From a virus (taxonomy: Duplodnaviria > Heunggongvirae > Uroviricota > Caudoviricetes), in IMG/VR virus record IMGVR_UViG_2802429241_000003: a stretch of 9,751 bases of DNA; one strand, 5' to 3'. A program made the translations under genes and the position numbers. Within the stretch, counting starts at the first letter, position 1, and each line of letters begins with the position of its first letter. A model generated the notes under the pieces. It was not told the origin of the DNA. It did not search any database and saw only the letters and a list, made by a program, of their open reading frames with translations. Below, in pieces: positions 520 through 8,124 of the stretch.

Positions 520-852
520 TCAGATCTCCCGTATCGTGACGGGATAAAGCGCCTCTACCTGCTTTTTCTTCATGATGTAGACGTCTGTTCGCACACCTTT
601 AGTGTCGACACAATCAATCGTCCCATCGTCATAAAACACCATGAAATCAAGTTTATAAACGACACCACCAGGCAGATGAAAAGGCACCTGCATAAGAAAC
701 GTCACAACGCGGCCAGCTTTTCTCAGTAGCTTCAGTTCGCAGTAGTAATCAGCCTCTTTTTTGCTATCAAAAGCGATGTCATCGACAACAGTTTTTTTAT
801 TGCCGTATTTGCTTTTCCTGGTCGCTGGTTTGCGAAAGCCGGTATATCTCAT
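520..852 (-). CDS. DUF1064-family phage protein (putative nuclease or Holliday-junction-resolvase-like protein of lambdoid nin regions)
   Basis: 110 aa with KYGNKKT...FDSKKEADYY.ELKLL...YKLDF...VDTKG motifs typical of DUF1064; start overlaps the upstream gene stop (ATGA at 849-852). Confidence 0.65.
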   Translation of the reverse strand: MRYTGFRKPATRKSKYGNKKTVVDDIAFDSKKEADYYCELKLLRKAGRVVTFLMQVPFHLPGGVVYKLDFMVFYDDGTIDCVDTKGVRTDVYIMKKKQVEALYPVTIREI

Positions 853-1253
853 TTGGTATCCCCTGGTACTTCACCAAGACTAAGATCAAACCCAATTTCG
901 TCTTTAACTGACTGCGGCAACAGCTCCCACGTCTGCGCACACAAAAATTCATCTGTGCCATAACGCTCAACAAAGCGAGCACAATTACTCAGGGGAGGGT
1001 GACGAACGGCAATATGCGGAGGCACGCGCCCACCACCAGGCACAACACCGCGATGATGTGGTGCGCACAACCCAAAGCTATGGAAGTGGCAATTCTCATC
1101 AACGCTGCCGTAATCAGGATCGTGATGCAGCTCCGTCCACAGTTCTGGATTCTCAATTTCACGGCCATCAATAATGCAAGCTATGCAACCCACGTGAGTG
1201 AGCACCGCTTGTATATAAAGTTTCTCTTTCTTCGTTGGTGTACGTCCGTTCAT
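849..1253 (-). CDS. Cys/His-rich nin-region protein, possibly a zinc-binding HNH/NinG/YbcO-like nuclease
   Basis: 134-aa ORF with spaced Cys and His pairs (GCIACI, HHD, CHFH, CAPHH) and a position in the operon analogous to ybcO/ninG; 1-nt stop/start overlap with the upstream gene at 1253. Specific family not resolvable by eye. Confidence 0.45.
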   Translation of the reverse strand: MNGRTPTKKEKLYIQAVLTHVGCIACIIDGREIENPELWTELHHDPDYGSVDENCHFHSFGLCAPHHRGVVPGGGRVPPHIAVRHPPLSNCARFVERYGTDEFLCAQTWELLPQSVKDEIGFDLSLGEVPGDTK

Positions 1254-2663: not shown

Positions 2664-3320
2664 ATGAAAAGCAACGACGAGAACATCAAGAAAGAAATAG
2701 GTCTGCGCATTCAGACTCTACGGAAACAATCCGGCATGACTGCCGGAGATCTCCAGCAAGTCACTGGAATAGGCTTAAGCACCTTGCAGAACTATGAGGC
2801 CGGATTAAGACAACCATCTATACCTGCCATCAAGAAAATCGCGCACGCCCTGAAAGCATCAGCGCCTTATATCGCGTGCTTAACAGATAACCCGTTCCCA
2901 CCCCAGAATACTAACGCTCCTGTTATTCCTGGGCTTGTAGCTATAAAAAATGACATAGCATCGCACGCCGGAGAAAAGCCAGTGCTGGCGATAGAACAGG
3001 AGATTCTACGAAGCAAGAACATCAACCCATCGTCTCTGTCAGTTCTCCAGAGCAACGATGAGTTAATGTCACCAACAATATCCCCAGGCTCCCAAGTCCT
3101 GATTAATACAGACGATACAGAGATTCATGAGGGGATCTATGCCCTTGAAGACAGAAATGGCCTGGTTGTTTTGAGGCACTGTAGAGTCATACCGGGTGAC
3201 AATGCTGTTATGCTGTCAACCGAAAGGGATGCTGAAATGAACACTAAGCATCTGAATAACGAGGAATTTAAGCGTTATAAAGTTCTTGGCCGCGTAGTTA
3301 GTGTTGTCAACTGGTTATGA
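2664..3320 (+). CDS. CI-like phage repressor: N-terminal HTH_XRE domain plus C-terminal LexA/S24-peptidase-like domain
   Basis: 218-aa ORF. HTH segment LRKQSGMTAGDLQQVTGIGLSTLQNYEAG; C-terminal segment with M-S-P-T-I-S-P-G-S-QVLIN spacing typical of the S24 fold. Divergent from the cro-like gene across palindromic operators. Confidence 0.8.
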   Translation: MKSNDENIKKEIGLRIQTLRKQSGMTAGDLQQVTGIGLSTLQNYEAGLRQPSIPAIKKIAHALKASAPYIACLTDNPFPPQNTNAPVIPGLVAIKNDIASHAGEKPVLAIEQEILRSKNINPSSLSVLQSNDELMSPTISPGSQVLINTDDTEIHEGIYALEDRNGLVVLRHCRVIPGDNAVMLSTERDAEMNTKHLNNEEFKRYKVLGRVVSVVNWL

Positions 3321-3915: not shown

Positions 3916-3937
3916 CAAACATATGGAGTCTCGACAA

Positions 3938-4591
3938 ATGACTATATCTGTAGGTATTTTCAACGGAAAAGGCGGCGTAACCAAATCAACCATTGCTCGT
4001 GCTTTAGCAGTTGCTTATGCAAAGGCTGGCTGGAATGTATGCCTGATCGATATGGATGTGCTTAACGGAACGGTAACGCGTTGGGTACAACGCAGAATGG
4101 CCAACAATATCGAACCAGCAATCGCGGCGCAGCCGTGCGGCACACCATCACAAGTCCAGAAAATCATCGAATCAGAAGTATACGACCTGGTTATCGTCGA
4201 TGGCGGTGCCTACGCATCTGAATCAGTACCGAAGCTCTCTGAATTTCTGGATATGGTTATTTTGCCAACCAGATTCTCTACCGATGACCTGGAAACCACC
4301 GTTAACACAGCTCACGGCATCGTTAAAAAGGGTGTACCAATCAAGAAAATTTGCATGGTGTTTTCCGGCGCGGCTGAAAACGAAGCTGACTATATTGAAG
4401 CCCAAGAGTACCTGGCTAATACGCCATACTTTGTTGTCGATAAGTACATTCCCCACAAGCCAGCTCTGAGCAAAGCTCAGGATAAGGGCTTAAGCCTCAT
4501 TGAGTGCTCATACGTTGCGCCACGCAAAAAGGCAGACGACGTTATTCAGGGGATTATCAACCAGCTTGAGGCTCTGACTACTGCCGCGTAA
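3938..4591 (+). CDS. parA: ParA/ParF-type partition ATPase (deviant Walker A), type Ib partition system
   Basis: GIFNGKGGVTKST Walker A-like box, LIDMD A'-box, DLVIVDGG Walker B. GGAG sits 9 nt upstream of the ATG at 3938; the track's upstream ATG at 3923 has no SD. Confidence 0.85.
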   Translation: MTISVGIFNGKGGVTKSTIARALAVAYAKAGWNVCLIDMDVLNGTVTRWVQRRMANNIEPAIAAQPCGTPSQVQKIIESEVYDLVIVDGGAYASESVPKLSEFLDMVILPTRFSTDDLETTVNTAHGIVKKGVPIKKICMVFSGAAENEADYIEAQEYLANTPYFVVDKYIPHKPALSKAQDKGLSLIECSYVAPRKKADDVIQGIINQLEALTTAA

Positions 4592-4622: not shown

Positions 4623-4634
4623 GAGGTGATACAC

Positions 4635-4883
4635 ATGGCCGCACCATCAAAACCACCAAAGAAGAACAGCAAAGGCGTACCGCCATCGATCGAACAACCG
4701 CAGGTTTTCGACCCGACTGAAACGCCAACCAGAACCAAATCAGGTGGGGCACAAATGGCGTTTAACGTCGACCCTGAATTTAAACGCGAGTACAAAACGT
4801 TCGCCAGCTCAATGGATATGTCATTGAAAGAAGTGCTGACAAAATCTTTTGAGTTACTCAAGGCTCAATACAACCAGAAGTAA
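4635..4883 (+). CDS. Small ParG-like ribbon-helix-helix centromere-binding protein candidate
   Basis: 82 aa immediately downstream of parA; AAGAGGTGA SD 5 nt upstream of the ATG at 4635. The C-terminal segment MAFNVDPEFKREYKTFASSMDMSLKEVLTKSFELL has a beta-strand then two helices like TP228 ParG, with a flexible basic N-terminus. Confidence 0.6.
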   Translation: MAAPSKPPKKNSKGVPPSIEQPQVFDPTETPTRTKSGGAQMAFNVDPEFKREYKTFASSMDMSLKEVLTKSFELLKAQYNQK

Positions 4884-4945: not shown

Positions 4946-5095
4946 ATGTCCGAGCAACAATATACACGGTTACTGAAAACTCGTCTAACCGACCTCAAAC
5001 GGCTGCAAGCTGGTCGCTTATTTGCCCTGCTATCCACCAGGCCAGAATGGGTACGTGAAGCAGTTCTGAAAGGCTTAATGCGCTCCAGCGTTTAA
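4946..5095 (+). CDS. Hypothetical small protein (49 aa)
   Basis: ATG at 4946 with AAGGGGA SD 7 nt upstream; ends just before the hairpin at 5111-5128. Short, no motif. Confidence 0.3.
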   Translation: MSEQQYTRLLKTRLTDLKRLQAGRLFALLSTRPEWVREAVLKGLMRSSV

Positions 5096-5104
5096 ATTCA
5101 ACCA

Positions 5105-5128
5105 TAAAAAAGGCCCCCGAAGGGGCCT
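5105..5128 (-). terminator. Intrinsic terminator for the minus-strand small ORF
   Basis: On the minus strand: hairpin ggcccc-ttcg-ggggcc (7 bp with the flanking A-T pair) followed by TTTTTT (5105-5110); on the plus strand the hairpin lacks a downstream U-tract. Confidence 0.6.
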
Positions 5129-5133
5129 AATCG

Positions 5134-5256
5134 CTACTTGCTGCTAATGTTTATCGTCACATTCAGAGCGTTATCAGTAATCTTCCAACCCTCCCCATGT
5201 GGCGTAAACAAAGCTCCAGTAACAACGATAAAAATACACATACAGTATTTTTTCAT
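5134..5256 (-). CDS. 40-aa small hydrophobic protein, candidate type I toxin (MKKYCMCIFIVVTGALFTPHGEGWKITDNALNVTINISSK)
   Basis: Internal ATG of the 60-aa track ORF with AAGGG SD about 8 nt upstream; hydrophobic N-terminal stretch; strong terminator immediately after the stop; candidate -10 TATAAT (minus strand, 5411-5416) about 150 nt upstream. Confidence 0.35.
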   Translation of the reverse strand: MKKYCMCIFIVVTGALFTPHGEGWKITDNALNVTINISSK

Positions 5257-5320
5257 TGTATGGCCCTTACAGGCCGTTTCACGGCATCCCCACCGACGAA
5301 AATGACGCGAGAGCAAGCAC

Positions 5321-5340
5321 GCTGTTTGTGCCTGCGTGGT
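5321..5340. repeat. Copy A of a 20-bp direct repeat (gctgtttgtgcctgcgtggt); lies in the predicted 5' leader of the small-ORF mRNA, where it is read as its complement
   Basis: 19 of 20 identity with 5570-5589; flanking sequence shows a diverged duplication of about 80 bp (ctgaaag and gcgaatc shared). Confidence 0.6.
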
Positions 5341-5569
5341 ACGGCAAGTGGATAATCCTTTCCTGAAAGTCGGTGCCCGGTTGCGAATCGGCGAAAAGGC
5401 CCCAAGCCATATTATACGTCATCCCCTTCATAATGAAGGAATAAAAAACGCTTTTATTACATAGAATTACACGTAAATAAGTTAAAAACCTTCATTTTGC
5501 ATGAGCTAATGAGCTAAATTTTTTATATGAATAGTGGACTATTCACCTAAATTGGGTAAGAATGTAGTT

Positions 5570-5672
5570 GCTGTTTGTGCTTGCGTGGTTGTATTAGTAC
5601 AACGACGTTATGCTGAAAGGACCGCGAATCCGATCGGCACGAAAGAACCGTCCTCAATAGGGCGGTTTTTTT
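5570..5672 (+). ncRNA. Candidate antisense small RNA (about 100 nt) beginning with repeat copy B and ending at an intrinsic terminator
   Basis: Copy B gctgtttgtgcttgcgtggt at 5570-5589; internal hairpin gttgta-ttag-tacaac; terminator ccgtcct-caat-agggcgg plus T7 at 5648-5672. A weak candidate promoter TGGACT-17-AAGAAT at 5535-5563 would start transcription near 5570. The 5' end is not established. Confidence 0.3.
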
Positions 5673-5676
5673 GTTT

Positions 5677-6222
5677 CTACCACCGCCCTATTGATTCAAG
5701 TATTAATGAAGGTGAATCATTTGAATTATTCGATTTTGCACCGTTATCGACCCAATCTCTGTATGCTTCATCACAACAGTACCTTACAGCAGTTGGAATA
5801 ACAGGGATGCCGCCCCCAAATGAGAACCCCATTGAGCTTATGCTAATTCTGTCGGATGGCCTATTTCTCAATGCTTCAAATCCCTTGCTGTTGAAGTAAC
5901 TCAGCATCAGAGGCAAAAGGTTATCCTCGTCCTGACTGATTGTTCCAGGGAAAAAGTAGTAACCATAGCGATTAAATTCGGGGATCAGTTTTTCTACCAA
6001 CAACATGAAATTCATTGGGCTAATATTAAGGGCTGTGCAAGCACCAAAAAGGGCATCAACTGTTAATACAGACTGCCCGTTCTCTATCTTTGTCCATGCG
6101 TTTGGTGTTTTTCCGGCAGCTTGAGCCAGCACTCCTTGATGCACACCTCTTTCTAGCCTAAGCTCTTTTATGATCATTAGGTGGATTGTTGAAAAACATG
6201 AGTTTTTTGACGGATCAGACAT
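5677..6222 (-). CDS. HTH_XRE-domain protein with a C-terminal domain of unknown function (181 aa)
   Basis: ATG at 6222 with GGAG 7 nt upstream; N-terminal IIKELRLERGVHQGVLAQAAGKTPNAWTKIENGQS is a Cro/C1-type HTH; stop lies inside an 11-bp inverted repeat (5655-5665 and 5683-5693). Confidence 0.6.
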   Translation of the reverse strand: MSDPSKNSCFSTIHLMIIKELRLERGVHQGVLAQAAGKTPNAWTKIENGQSVLTVDALFGACTALNISPMNFMLLVEKLIPEFNRYGYYFFPGTISQDEDNLLPLMLSYFNSKGFEALRNRPSDRISISSMGFSFGGGIPVIPTAVRYCCDEAYRDWVDNGAKSNNSNDSPSLILESIGRW

Positions 6223-6406: not shown

Positions 6407-6505
6407 ATGCGCCATTGGTGGACACTTTCCGAGCCGTAGCAAAATCTACGGTCGGGATTGGCGTCCCGATTGCACAATGGCGCATACCGCGTTAGCGGTT
6501 TTTTT
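6407..6505 (+). ncRNA. Structured element: 11-bp long-range stem enclosing two adjacent 6-bp hairpins, followed at once by an intrinsic terminator; candidate leader/attenuator or small RNA
   Basis: Outer stem 6407-6417 aatgcgccattg pairs with 6475-6485 caatggcgcat; hairpins ccgtag-caaaat-ctacgg and tcggga-ttggcg-tcccga; terminator accgc-gtta-gcggt plus T7 (6486-6505). TTGACA at 6397-6402 lies just upstream. Confidence 0.3.
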
Positions 6506-6607
6506 ATGCGTAAAGCACTGCTACACCCAAATTATGGTGGGGCGTGCGGGGGCGGAGAAATCCGCGCCGGGTTTGTCATTGTGCCGGTTACGCCAACCCT
6601 GTACGTC

Positions 6608-6641
6608 TCACCACCATATTGATTGGCGTCATTGGTGGTGA
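6608..6641. promoter_or_regulatory. Inverted repeat TCACCACCA-N16-TGGTGGTGA in the promoter region of the antirepressor-like operon
   Basis: 9-bp perfect arms at 6608-6616 and 6633-6641; a third ATTGGTGG half-site at 6414-6421; lies 27-60 bp upstream of the ATG at 6668. Confidence 0.4.
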
Positions 6642-6667
6642 TAGTTCCTTTAATCGGAGATATCACA

Positions 6668-6859
6668 ATGACAAACCTACCCCATGACTATTACGTCAAC
6701 CTCGTAAAGATCCTTCTCAAGAAAGCCTCATACGCCGATAAATTCCGCCTGGCTGAAATCATAGAGCGCGAAGCTATGCGCATCGCCAGCAACGATAACG
6801 CTGTTTCTGACGCAAAAATCTCCCTCGTAACCAAAGTAGTTATGGGAGGTGCAAAATGA
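6668..6859 (+). CDS. Hypothetical small protein (63 aa), translationally coupled to the downstream antirepressor-like gene
   Basis: ATG at 6668 with GGAGA SD 8 nt upstream; stop TGA overlaps the ATG of the next gene (ATGA at 6856-6859). Confidence 0.45.
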   Translation: MTNLPHDYYVNLVKILLKKASYADKFRLAEIIEREAMRIASNDNAVSDAKISLVTKVVMGGAK

Positions 6860-8124
6860 AAACGCTTCCGACCGTTAACACCCTACAGCCTATCCTGCAT
6901 AACCAAATCCCTGTCATTACTACCGAGTTACTGGCACAGCTTTACGGCGTATCTCCTGTACGCATTCGACAAAATCATCATGAGAATAAGGAACGCTTCA
7001 TTGAAGGTAAGCACTACTTCAAAATTGAAGGTAACGAACTTCGAGAGTTAAAGCACAAAGTGACTCAAGATAATGATGTGAAGAACAAAAACTCTTTAAG
7101 AGATTCAGTTAATGACGCCCCCTCTAAAAGAGAGAGCGTCGAGCACAGAGTAGTTTTAAACTACTCTGTTAACCACAAGGTAACTAAAAGTCACTCTGTG
7201 AAAATCGCCCGTAACGTTCGCTCCCTCATTCTCTGGACAGAACGCGGGGCTGCACGTCACGCTAAAATGCTCGAAACTAACCAAGCGTGGGATGTGTTCG
7301 AACGGCTGGAAGACTGCTACTTCAACCAGAACGCGCAAACGGCCGCGACCGTTACCGTCTCGCCAAACAATGCTCGTGAGGTTGTCGATACGCTCAACGC
7401 CAAACCGATGTTTTACATTAAGGTGTGCAACAACGAGCCACTCACAACCTCAGCCGATGTTGCCCAGGCATTCAGCACCACAAACAATTCCATCGTTATG
7501 GCCATCGATGCGCTACGCATTCCTCGCACGGCTGCGGCACGTCATTTCTTTAAAGAGCAACGACCGCTGGAAGGAAGCGACCGCGAAATAACAATCTATC
7601 GCATGACAAAAGACGGATTTACCTTGCTCATGGAAAGTATCGACGGTCCAGGCGTGAAGGATATCAAGCTGGCCTACATTGAAGCCTTTAACGCTATCAG
7701 CAGCGTGTTAAAAACACAGTACGAGCGCGATCTGGCTAAACGACTGTACCAGGAAAAAACGATTATCCGCGCGGCAACAGAGCATAATCGGCTATTAACG
7801 GAACCGAACTACAGGAAGGAACTAATCAAGGAGTTTGACAAGGCAACAGGGAAAACCAAAGCGACGCTAAATCTGCCAGCAATGACTCAGGAAAATGTGA
7901 TATCAGCCTTACTTCTTGATCTGCTCAGAAACGCCAGAGCACTTATCAGCTTTGACGAAAACCTGAATCCTCAGCTCAAGCTACTACCACCGACAGGCAA
8001 AGTAGTCGACCAAGCTGATCACAACAGCATACTCAGCGTTCTGGATGCAAACCTGCCAGCCAGGACACTACAGGATCTGATAAAAACATGTGCTGATAAG
8101 CTGGCACAGAAAAGCAGACCATAA
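6856..8124 (+). CDS. Antirepressor-like phage regulatory protein: N-terminal ORF6N-like domain, central Rha-like domain, unassigned C-terminal region
   Basis: 422 aa. N-terminal ITTELLAQLYGVSPVRIRQNHHENKERF...ILWTERGAARHAKMLETNQAWDVFERLEDCYF resembles ORF6N; central RMTKDGFTLLMESIDGPGVKDIKLAYIEAFNAI resembles the Rha family (TRDGF..L.M.F.G.....K..YI.AFN). Strong GGGAGG SD 6 nt upstream. Confidence 0.75.
   Translation: MKTLPTVNTLQPILHNQIPVITTELLAQLYGVSPVRIRQNHHENKERFIEGKHYFKIEGNELRELKHKVTQDNDVKNKNSLRDSVNDAPSKRESVEHRVVLNYSVNHKVTKSHSVKIARNVRSLILWTERGAARHAKMLETNQAWDVFERLEDCYFNQNAQTAATVTVSPNNAREVVDTLNAKPMFYIKVCNNEPLTTSADVAQAFSTTNNSIVMAIDALRIPRTAAARHFFKEQRPLEGSDREITIYRMTKDGFTLLMESIDGPGVKDIKLAYIEAFNAISSVLKTQYERDLAKRLYQEKTIIRAATEHNRLLTEPNYRKELIKEFDKATGKTKATLNLPAMTQENVISALLLDLLRNARALISFDENLNPQLKLLPPTGKVVDQADHNSILSVLDANLPARTLQDLIKTCADKLAQKSRP

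Follow-up and report, generated by a model that had tools for sequence, protein, structure and literature searches.

The sseA-sseB locus on the chromosomes of Salmonella, E. coli, Shigella and other enterobacteria harbours the type I toxin-antitoxin system timP/timR (ryfA/ryfB; STnc2070). Its toxin transcript, ryfA, was first annotated as a non-coding RNA and was later shown to be the mRNA of TimP, a toxic inner-membrane protein of 38 amino acids (aa) that is repressed by TimR, a small RNA (sRNA) whose gene lies divergently and directly upstream of timP (PMC7667032). In Salmonella, compensatory mutants and in vitro translation proved that TimR pairs with timP over 18 nucleotides (nt) at stem-loop 2 (SL2) of the mRNA leader (PMC7667032), and the SL2 loop is protected by TimR (PMC11228461). 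In studies by the Holmqvist laboratory, four stem-loops were shown to form in the Salmonella leader, one of which, SL4, locks up the Shine-Dalgarno (SD) sequence, and translation was found to depend on a pseudoknot of 7 bp that joins site 1 in SL1 to site 3 in the SL3 loop (PMC11228461, PMC13000454). It also requires the pairing of site 2 with site 4, which opens SL4, and it is the pairing of sites 1 and 2 that holds the inactive state (PMC13000454). Here, we compare with this system the region 5105-5672 of a 9,751-nt stretch of viral DNA (Caudoviricetes; IMG/VR record IMGVR_UViG_2802429241_000003), the whole of which we call the window. We assign the region, with a probability of about 0.9, to a type I toxin-antitoxin module of the timP/timR family that resides on a phage-plasmid.

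The module is a divergent copy of the known enterobacterial timP/timR (ryfA) system on a phage-plasmid of ~48 kb, located beside partition genes, and it belongs to a distinct mobile-element clade of TimP. Both of its RNAs are homologous to those of the chromosomal system, their pairing is conserved and covaries among homologues, and the open reading frame (ORF) of the toxin is under coding constraint. The kind of system is known; the phage- and plasmid-borne timPR clade is the part for which we could not find a description. Literature searches combining timP or ryfA with phage-plasmid, prophage or bacteriophage, and searches for the names of the Yersinia phages described below, returned no published account of a mobile copy, and the single co-occurrence of timP/ryfA with phage terms turned out to be an author surname. 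Neither timP nor timR was annotated in any of the 11 plasmid and phage records that we inspected. The peptide scores under its NCBIfam cut-off, and the RNAs were not called by phage annotation.

The toxin and antitoxin genes

In a scan of the window, the Rfam family ryfA (RF00126; gathering score 80 bits) matched the minus strand from 5404 to 5106 with 136.3 bits (E = 1.4e-35) and over the full length of the model (1-296 of 296), which delimits a timP mRNA of ~299 nt from its inferred start to its terminator (5106..5404). The TimP-like ORF, 40 aa plus stop codon (5134..5256, minus strand; MKKYCMCIFIVVTGALFTPHGEGWKITDNALNVTINISSK), starts at mRNA nt 149, the E. coli equivalent being nt 147. The SD sequence AAGGG (5264-5268, minus strand) lies 7 nt before the AUG and partly within SL4. 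Directly after the stop codon follows an intrinsic terminator (5105..5128, minus strand), formed by a stem of 7 pairs (5128-5111), six of which are G-C, and then T6. The putative -10 box TATAAT (5411..5416, minus strand), 7 nt upstream of the Rfam model start, would put the start of timP near 5404, exactly where the ryfA match starts, and would give a leader of ~148 nt; homologous plasmids have TGTAAT in its place. A first-pass annotation of this DNA, made from the letters alone, had proposed the minus-strand ORF with its AAGGG, a hairpin with a U6 terminator after the stop codon and a TATAAT box giving a leader of about 150 nt, and all of these elements were recovered here.

Its further suggestion, that the pair may be new, did not hold, since the window copy is detectable with a standard Rfam scan. 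The NCBIfam model NF040796 (toxic_TimP) aligned with the peptide from end to end (1-40 of 40; E = 7.1e-5, 23 bits), and the divergent sRNA is homologous to TimR. Chromosomal matches in complete E. coli genomes are annotated timP, ~70% identical over 5204-5402.

The N-terminus of the ORF is hydrophobic and resembles a signal sequence (MKKYCMCIFIVVTGALF, compared with MKIRCFCIVLIVSGALL in E. coli). Among the seven mobile-clade ORFs, substitutions at codon positions 1, 2 and 3 amounted to 170, 31 and 252 when summed over pairs; the ORF is intact in every homologue, and one plasmid variant carries an in-frame 3-nt deletion. Based on this codon-position bias and the in-frame deletion, we conclude that the peptide is under purifying selection. 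The mobile peptides follow the consensus MKKY.C..[IL]VV[ST]GAL..P.GEGWK[IV][ST][DN]N[AS]LNVTIN[IV]S[SG]K, and the C-terminal motif GEGWK..N.LNVTIN.SGK would be specific to the mobile toxins. In chromosomal TimPs, conservation is confined to the N-terminal half (PMC7667032). A word-indexed protein search with the 40-aa peptide returned two proteins only, an exhaustive HMMER search returned six hits (two near-identical copies, the rest being low-complexity matches in long proteins), and PHROGs contained no family for it. Such sparse matches say nothing about rarity, because gene callers rarely call ORFs of this kind.

On the plus strand, the TimR unit of ~103 nt (5570..5672) contains a conserved internal stem-loop and is homologous to chromosomal TimR beyond the seed, namely in the stem-loop core GCUGnAAGGnCCGCGAAYCnnAnCAGCA, in an A-rich linker and in the terminator. 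The unit has a predicted folding energy of -41.3 kcal/mol (z = -5.1), and its 3' end is a hairpin followed by U7 (terminator 5648-5672), in agreement with the short plus-strand unit and clean terminator that had been proposed. Rfam has no model for TimR; a relaxed Rfam search of the timR side gave sub-threshold matches only (RNAI with 23 vs 47 bits, and others), which we judged to be terminator-driven chance. A perfect 13-nt inverted repeat (5654-5666, TCAATAGGGCGGT; 5682-5694, ACCGCCCTATTGA) extends beyond the TimR terminator: the 3' half of the terminator forms its left arm, and the last codons of a convergent helix-turn-helix (HTH) gene lie in its right arm. Homology between plasmid variants breaks at ~5680, near this repeat, which could be a bidirectional terminator or a recombination joint.

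The candidate timR promoter (5535..5563, plus strand) consists of a -35 box TGGACT (5535-5540), a 17-nt spacer and a -10 box AAGAAT (5558-5563). It matches 8 of 12 consensus positions, which is under the threshold of the promoter scan, and both boxes are kept across plasmid variants with otherwise unlike surrounding sequence. The -35 boxes of both timP and timR are weak, and we infer the two promoters from their -10 boxes, position and conservation. The sole promoter-like site that the scan reported (minus strand, 5282-5255) overlaps the SD sequence and the start codon, and was taken as chance. Between the two RNA genes lies an AT-rich divergent promoter region (5405..5569), of which an alignment of ten plasmid versions of the module, the window included, revealed at least three unrelated versions among plasmids with 90-100% identical flanking RNA genes. 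Mobile copies have 153-226 bp between the 5' end of TimR and the start of timP, compared with 76-82 bp in chromosomal loci.

Predicted pairing of the two RNAs and structure of the leader

The first 20 nt of the TimR unit (5570-5589, GCTGTTTGTGCTTGCGTGGT) are identical at 19 of 20 positions to 5321-5340 (GCTGTTTGTGCCTGCGTGGT), and the identity breaks off sharply at both ends; over 200 shuffles, the best 20-mer match was 16 of 20. The pattern of the 20-mer has only two copies in the window, and none of the whole-window shuffles contained two matches to it. On the minus strand, 5321..5340 correspond to mRNA nt 65-84, that is, to the 5' arm and loop of SL2, which we predict to be the TimR-binding site from the repeat and the duplex energy. 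The single mismatch between the 20-mers becomes a G-U pair in a 20-nt RNA duplex. Duplex prediction between the leader and the 24 nt at the 5' end of the sRNA yielded -39.6 kcal/mol, compared with -19.6 ± 2.5 kcal/mol for shuffled 24-mers, the best of which reached -31.5 kcal/mol. The first-pass annotation had described both the 19-of-20 repeat and a 20-nt pairing with one G-U wobble, and these values are in line with it. A prediction with full-length RNAs was dropped as uninformative (shuffles at -60 ± 4.5 kcal/mol), since long internal loops inflate every score, and the 24-nt 5' end was used instead.

In the alignment of the ten plasmid versions, four plasmids have GCTGCTTG in place of the seed GCTGTTTG, in the leader as well as in the sRNA. 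In a fifth plasmid the sRNA seed reads GCCGCTTG, and the leader copy has the same two T-to-C changes. The seed differences between plasmids thus occur in both copies, while the AT-rich promoter region between the genes is swapped for unrelated sequence.

Is a private pairing partner common among timP loci? A pattern scan of genome and viral collections added 11 viral contigs and, with flanking sequence long enough to analyse, 16 more chromosomal loci from enterobacteria; counted with the window, the plasmid loci and both copies at an E. coli chromosomal locus (L002, see below), the set comprised 40 loci. Across all 40, the site falls within mRNA nt 61-85. At nt 63-85 it has its own upstream partner in 39 loci, and the sequence of the site varies widely among loci. 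The partner is 15-20 nt long in 37 loci and 12-13 nt long in two (L031 and L033); the exception, L024, has a 9-nt match only. The genera recovered were Escherichia, Shigella, Kluyvera, Citrobacter, Pseudocitrobacter and Superficieibacter. Salmonella was not recovered by this pattern scan, and the published mutant numbering was therefore mapped through E. coli. Eight hits in GC-rich, non-enterobacterial genomes were discarded as chance.

When the 5' ends of 16 sRNAs were combined with 16 leaders, cognate duplexes had a mean energy of -37.3 kcal/mol and non-cognate duplexes a mean of -22.1 kcal/mol. The window TimR gave -19 to -27 kcal/mol with the chromosomal leaders of E. coli and Shigella, and the reciprocal combinations gave -20 to -26 kcal/mol, which is near background. 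On these energies, the window TimR is predicted not to pair with the chromosomal timP mRNAs of E. coli. The chromosomal locus L002, which carries two timP copies (both with ryfA matches of 314-316 bits), has the same layout as the window, with a second copy of leader nt 63-83 upstream, at the 5' end of a divergent unit closed by a terminator. This locus (L002 1-1200; sseA-sseB region of the E. coli APEC37 chromosome) is a tandem timP-timR duplication with diverged seeds, whose cross duplexes are at about -22 kcal/mol and whose cognate duplexes are at -35 and -41 kcal/mol. An Rfam match to IS128 RNA lies between its two copies, on the strand opposite to TimR.

For the leader, we aligned 26 distinct sequences (11 mobile, 15 chromosomal) and counted pairs. 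The helices SL1-SL4 are paired in 94.3% of the cells, compared with 39-46% for slid partners, and nine pairs are changed on both sides. SL4 (mRNA nt 128-145; 5260..5277, minus strand), the stem-loop that would sequester the SD sequence as judged from the Rfam alignment and the pair counts, is paired in 91.8% of the cells, with two pairs changed on both sides. The predicted pseudoknot joins site 1, CACCGAC (mRNA nt 30-36; 5369..5375, minus strand), with site 3, GUCGGUG, in the SL3 loop (mRNA nt 108-114; 5291..5297, minus strand) by 7 Watson-Crick base pairs. These are 100% paired in 26 of 26 leaders, and three pairs are changed on both sides; relative to CGCUGGC/GCCAGUG of chromosomal E. coli, the exchanges are UA/CG, GC/AU and AU/GC. 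Site 2, GCCGU (mRNA nt 60-64; 5341..5345, minus strand), is predicted to open SL4 by pairing with site 4, ACGGC, in the 5' flank of SL4 (mRNA nt 128-132; 5273..5277, minus strand). Five of the six pairs between sites 2 and 4 are kept in the mobile clade, and the sixth is unpaired in all 11 mobile sequences. As read from the alignment, the published RNA switch is preserved with compensatory changes in its four stem-loops, its pseudoknot and its site 2-4 pairing.

Phage-plasmid setting and possible role

The element represented by the window is a phage-plasmid. The window is covered to 97%, at 97-98% identity, by the Yersinia phages vB_YpM_39, 41 and 44 (OR545053-55; ~49 kb), in whose records every gene of the region is labelled hypothetical. 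We counted the module in 59-61 plasmids, non-mobilizable and ~48 kb in size; nearly all come from Escherichia, two from Salmonella and one from Klebsiella. E. coli ATCC 25922, for instance, carries a 48,488-bp plasmid (NZ_CP009073.1) with a 96.9% identical module at 20300-20879. Among 5,426 complete E. coli genomes we found the module at 73 places on plasmids, so that ~1% of them would carry an unlisted membrane toxin gene.

timP, itself on the minus strand, is preceded by four plus-strand genes or ORFs: a CI-like repressor gene (2664-3320; HTH, weak S24 peptidase match), a ParA-type ATPase gene (3923-4591), the gene of an 85-aa ParA partner (4626-4883; phrog_6024, no Pfam match), which is probably the centromere-binding partner of ParA, and a conserved 49-aa ORF (4946-5095). 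timR is followed by a 181-aa XRE-type HTH regulator gene (5677-6222, minus strand). From there, all on the plus strand, come the Hfq-binding RNA isrK (6433-6505; Rfam, 67 bits), the C4 antisense RNA (6530-6618; Rfam, 72 bits), a 78-aa ORF (6623-6859) and a 422-aa ORF6N/Rha anti-repressor gene (6856-8124), an array reminiscent of a P1/P7-type immI immunity operon. In part of the plasmid family the XRE-type gene is swapped for other genes, and matches of 78% coverage stop at 5684. The near-identical plasmid pFDN11_2 annotates a Ref-family recombination enhancement nuclease (849-1253, minus strand) and a DUF1064 protein (520-852, minus strand). Ref-family nucleases are known from P1, and both proteins give the backbone further P1-like content.

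Divergent mobile copies with ryfA matches of 135-174 bits were found in other phage backgrounds (contigs L039, L040, L044 and L045). In L039, identity to the window amounts to 79% for the 49-aa ORF but to only 54% for ParA. In three of these contigs the module lies within 0.3-2 kb of isrK-C4 (L039, 3074-5069; L040, 8402-10756; L045, 694-1521), and in L045 TimR is directly upstream of isrK, on the same strand and with no gene between. This linkage of timP/timR to isrK-C4 may be functional, or it may reflect shared ancestry only. A ParA homologue was not found in the examined part of contigs L040 and L044.

By analogy with the Salmonella work, from which we take toxicity, repression and the order of the structural events, the module would operate as follows. 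The ~299-nt mRNA (5404 to 5106, minus strand) would encode a 40-aa TimP-like inner-membrane toxin, and its 148-nt leader would fold into four stem-loops, with the SD sequence held in SL4. Translation would require that site 1 (nt 30-36) and site 3 (nt 108-114) form the pseudoknot, and also that site 2 (nt 60-64) pair with nt 128-132 in the 5' flank of SL4. TimR (~103 nt; 5570-5672, plus strand) would pair via its first 20 nt with leader nt 65-84 in SL2 and destabilise the active conformation, which would block translation. Upon depletion of TimR, TimP would be made and the inner membrane damaged.

What might such a module do on a phage-plasmid? We consider it plausible, at slightly less than even odds, that it acts as an addiction system by post-segregational killing on this low-copy element, because it adjoins parA and its partner, because TimR is less stable than the timP mRNA in Salmonella (PMC7667032), and because it is predicted to be insulated from the chromosomal timPR. 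A low-copy setting after partition genes, combined with the predicted insulation and purifying selection, is where type I addiction or exclusion is expected, and this makes the role testable. With a little more reserve, we speculate that the phage-plasmid timPR could be the form of the system with a clear job, either addiction or exclusion, with a diverged seed that insulates it from the host timR and a mobile-specific toxin C-terminus, and that the sseA-sseB copies could be its domesticated relatives. If this were true, plasmid loss would offer a direct assay for a family without a native-expression phenotype.

Some observations weigh against a functional timP/timR module, or against its acting by strong killing. 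First, the peptide fails the curated cut-off of the TimP model, with 23 bits compared with 45, and the NCBI Prokaryotic Genome Annotation Pipeline (PGAP) would therefore not name it. The scores are 13-27 bits for mobile-clade peptides and 77.7 for E. coli TimP, and the chromosomal TimPs of Pseudocitrobacter (35.6) and Superficieibacter (35.3) are also under the cut-off. The 45-bit cut-off is an annotation threshold for a subfamily, not a definition of the system. Second, the site 1-2 lock, in the register that we derived from the published mutant descriptions (PMC13000454) with Salmonella numbering mapped through E. coli at an offset of 2 nt, has two of its five pairs broken in all 11 mobile sequences, and only a shifted 4-bp alternative, GGCA:UGCC, is possible. 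The 2-nt offset reproduces all published pair partners. If this register holds, the inactive lock may be weaker here and the tuning of the switch different. Third, a simple consensus promoter scan reported neither the timP nor the timR promoter. Finally, deletion of the chromosomal timPR in Salmonella caused no growth phenotype (PMC7667032), and strong killing on plasmid loss can therefore not be assumed.

Among the alternatives, a role other than addiction, such as anti-phage defence, abortive infection, superinfection exclusion or control over the lytic-lysogenic decision of the element, is on balance unlikely and nevertheless a serious rival, because the linkage to the C4-antirepressor region recurs: the module is beside the isrK-C4-antirepressor region in the window and in L039, L040 and L045. 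The examined parts of L040 and L044 in which no ParA homologue was found point the same way, and links between type I toxins and abortive infection have been described (cited in PMC13000454). The module is, however, in the neighbourhood of parA in the window family and in L039, and the need of a low-copy plasmid element to persist favours addiction.

Could the ~300-nt transcript instead be mainly a non-coding regulatory sRNA, the level of which is tuned by the short RNA and whose ORF is incidental? RyfA has been reported as an sRNA that affects stress resistance and virulence in uropathogenic and avian pathogenic E. coli and in Shigella (PMC8205139, PMC13188913, PMC5333039), and the RNA structure is indeed strongly conserved. 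We nevertheless find this improbable for the module: the ORF is intact in every homologue, with an in-frame 3-nt deletion in one variant, the second codon positions are strongly conserved, the C-terminal GEGWK..N.LNVTIN is kept across mobile copies that are divergent at the nucleotide level, and the TimP of Salmonella is translated and toxic (PMC7667032). An sRNA role and a toxin-mRNA role of ryfA do not exclude each other.

It is very improbable that the module has lost its activity and travels with the phage-plasmid backbone as a relic. The sub-threshold peptide score and the seemingly weakened site 1-2 lock would suit decay, but the ORF, the SD sequence, both terminators, the pseudoknot and the cognate complementarity are all maintained, and compensatory changes are seen across lineages in which ParA is only 54% identical or which have no backbone genes in common. 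The weakest alternative, raised in the first-pass annotation, is that the 20-mers are binding sites of a DNA-binding protein (iteron or operator) with incidental RNA complementarity; although they are direct repeats that flank a divergent promoter region near partition and repressor genes, we give it hardly any weight, as there are two copies only in 9.7 kb, one of them falls at the conserved SL2 position, 65 nt into the transcribed leader, chromosomal loci without plasmid functions have the same arrangement, and the site covaries with its partner as in the validated timP/TimR pair, whose pairing at this site in Salmonella was proven by compensatory mutations (PMC7667032).

Comparison with known toxin-antitoxin systems

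The gene layout and the short complementarity in the 5' untranslated region of the toxin are like those of the E. coli systems zorO-orzO, shoB-ohsC, tisB-istR1 and dinQ-agrB. The trans-acting, divergent type I class to which the module had been compared at the outset is thus borne out by the ryfA, TimP and TimR homology. These E. coli systems rely on mRNA processing or standby sites, whereas timP relies on a pseudoknot switch. Rfam holds models for hok/sok, zorO-orzO, shoB-ohsC, tisB-istR, ldr-rdl and ibs-sib. At the gathering score, the whole window matched ryfA, C4 and isrK only, with no match to hok, Sok, zorO-orzO, shoB-ohsC, tisB-istR, dinQ-agrB, ldr-rdl or ibs-sib.

Like hok/sok of plasmid R1 and its relatives, the window module would specify a small membrane toxin, and it too is found close to partition functions on an extrachromosomal element of low copy number. 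In hok/sok a toxin mRNA that is stable and structured is combined with a labile antisense RNA, and we take hok/sok as the model for the post-segregational killing that we suggest here. Sok, however, is encoded in cis and overlaps the mok leader ORF, and the hok mRNA needs 3' processing. In contrast, the antitoxin of the window is encoded in trans and divergently, and the activation of timP is purely structural in Salmonella.

The closest relative is timP/timR itself. Like the chromosomal copies, the window copy has a toxin mRNA of ~300 nt with a four-stem-loop leader in which the SD sequence is held in SL4, and an ORF at the same position (38-41 aa in timP/timR) with a signal-like N-terminus. 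In both, the 5' end of a divergent sRNA pairs, as predicted for the window, with SL2 at the same distance from the start codon, and the TimR body and terminator are homologous. The window copy differs in residing on a phage-plasmid rather than in the sseA-sseB locus, and its peptide is only ~40% identical to E. coli TimP, with a C-terminal half that is conserved in the mobile clade and variable among chromosomal TimPs. Its family has a divergent promoter region of about twice the chromosomal length, which is hypervariable, and the inactive-state pairing of sites 1 and 2 appears weakened or shifted. Finally, its seed is predicted not to pair with the host copies of timP/timR.

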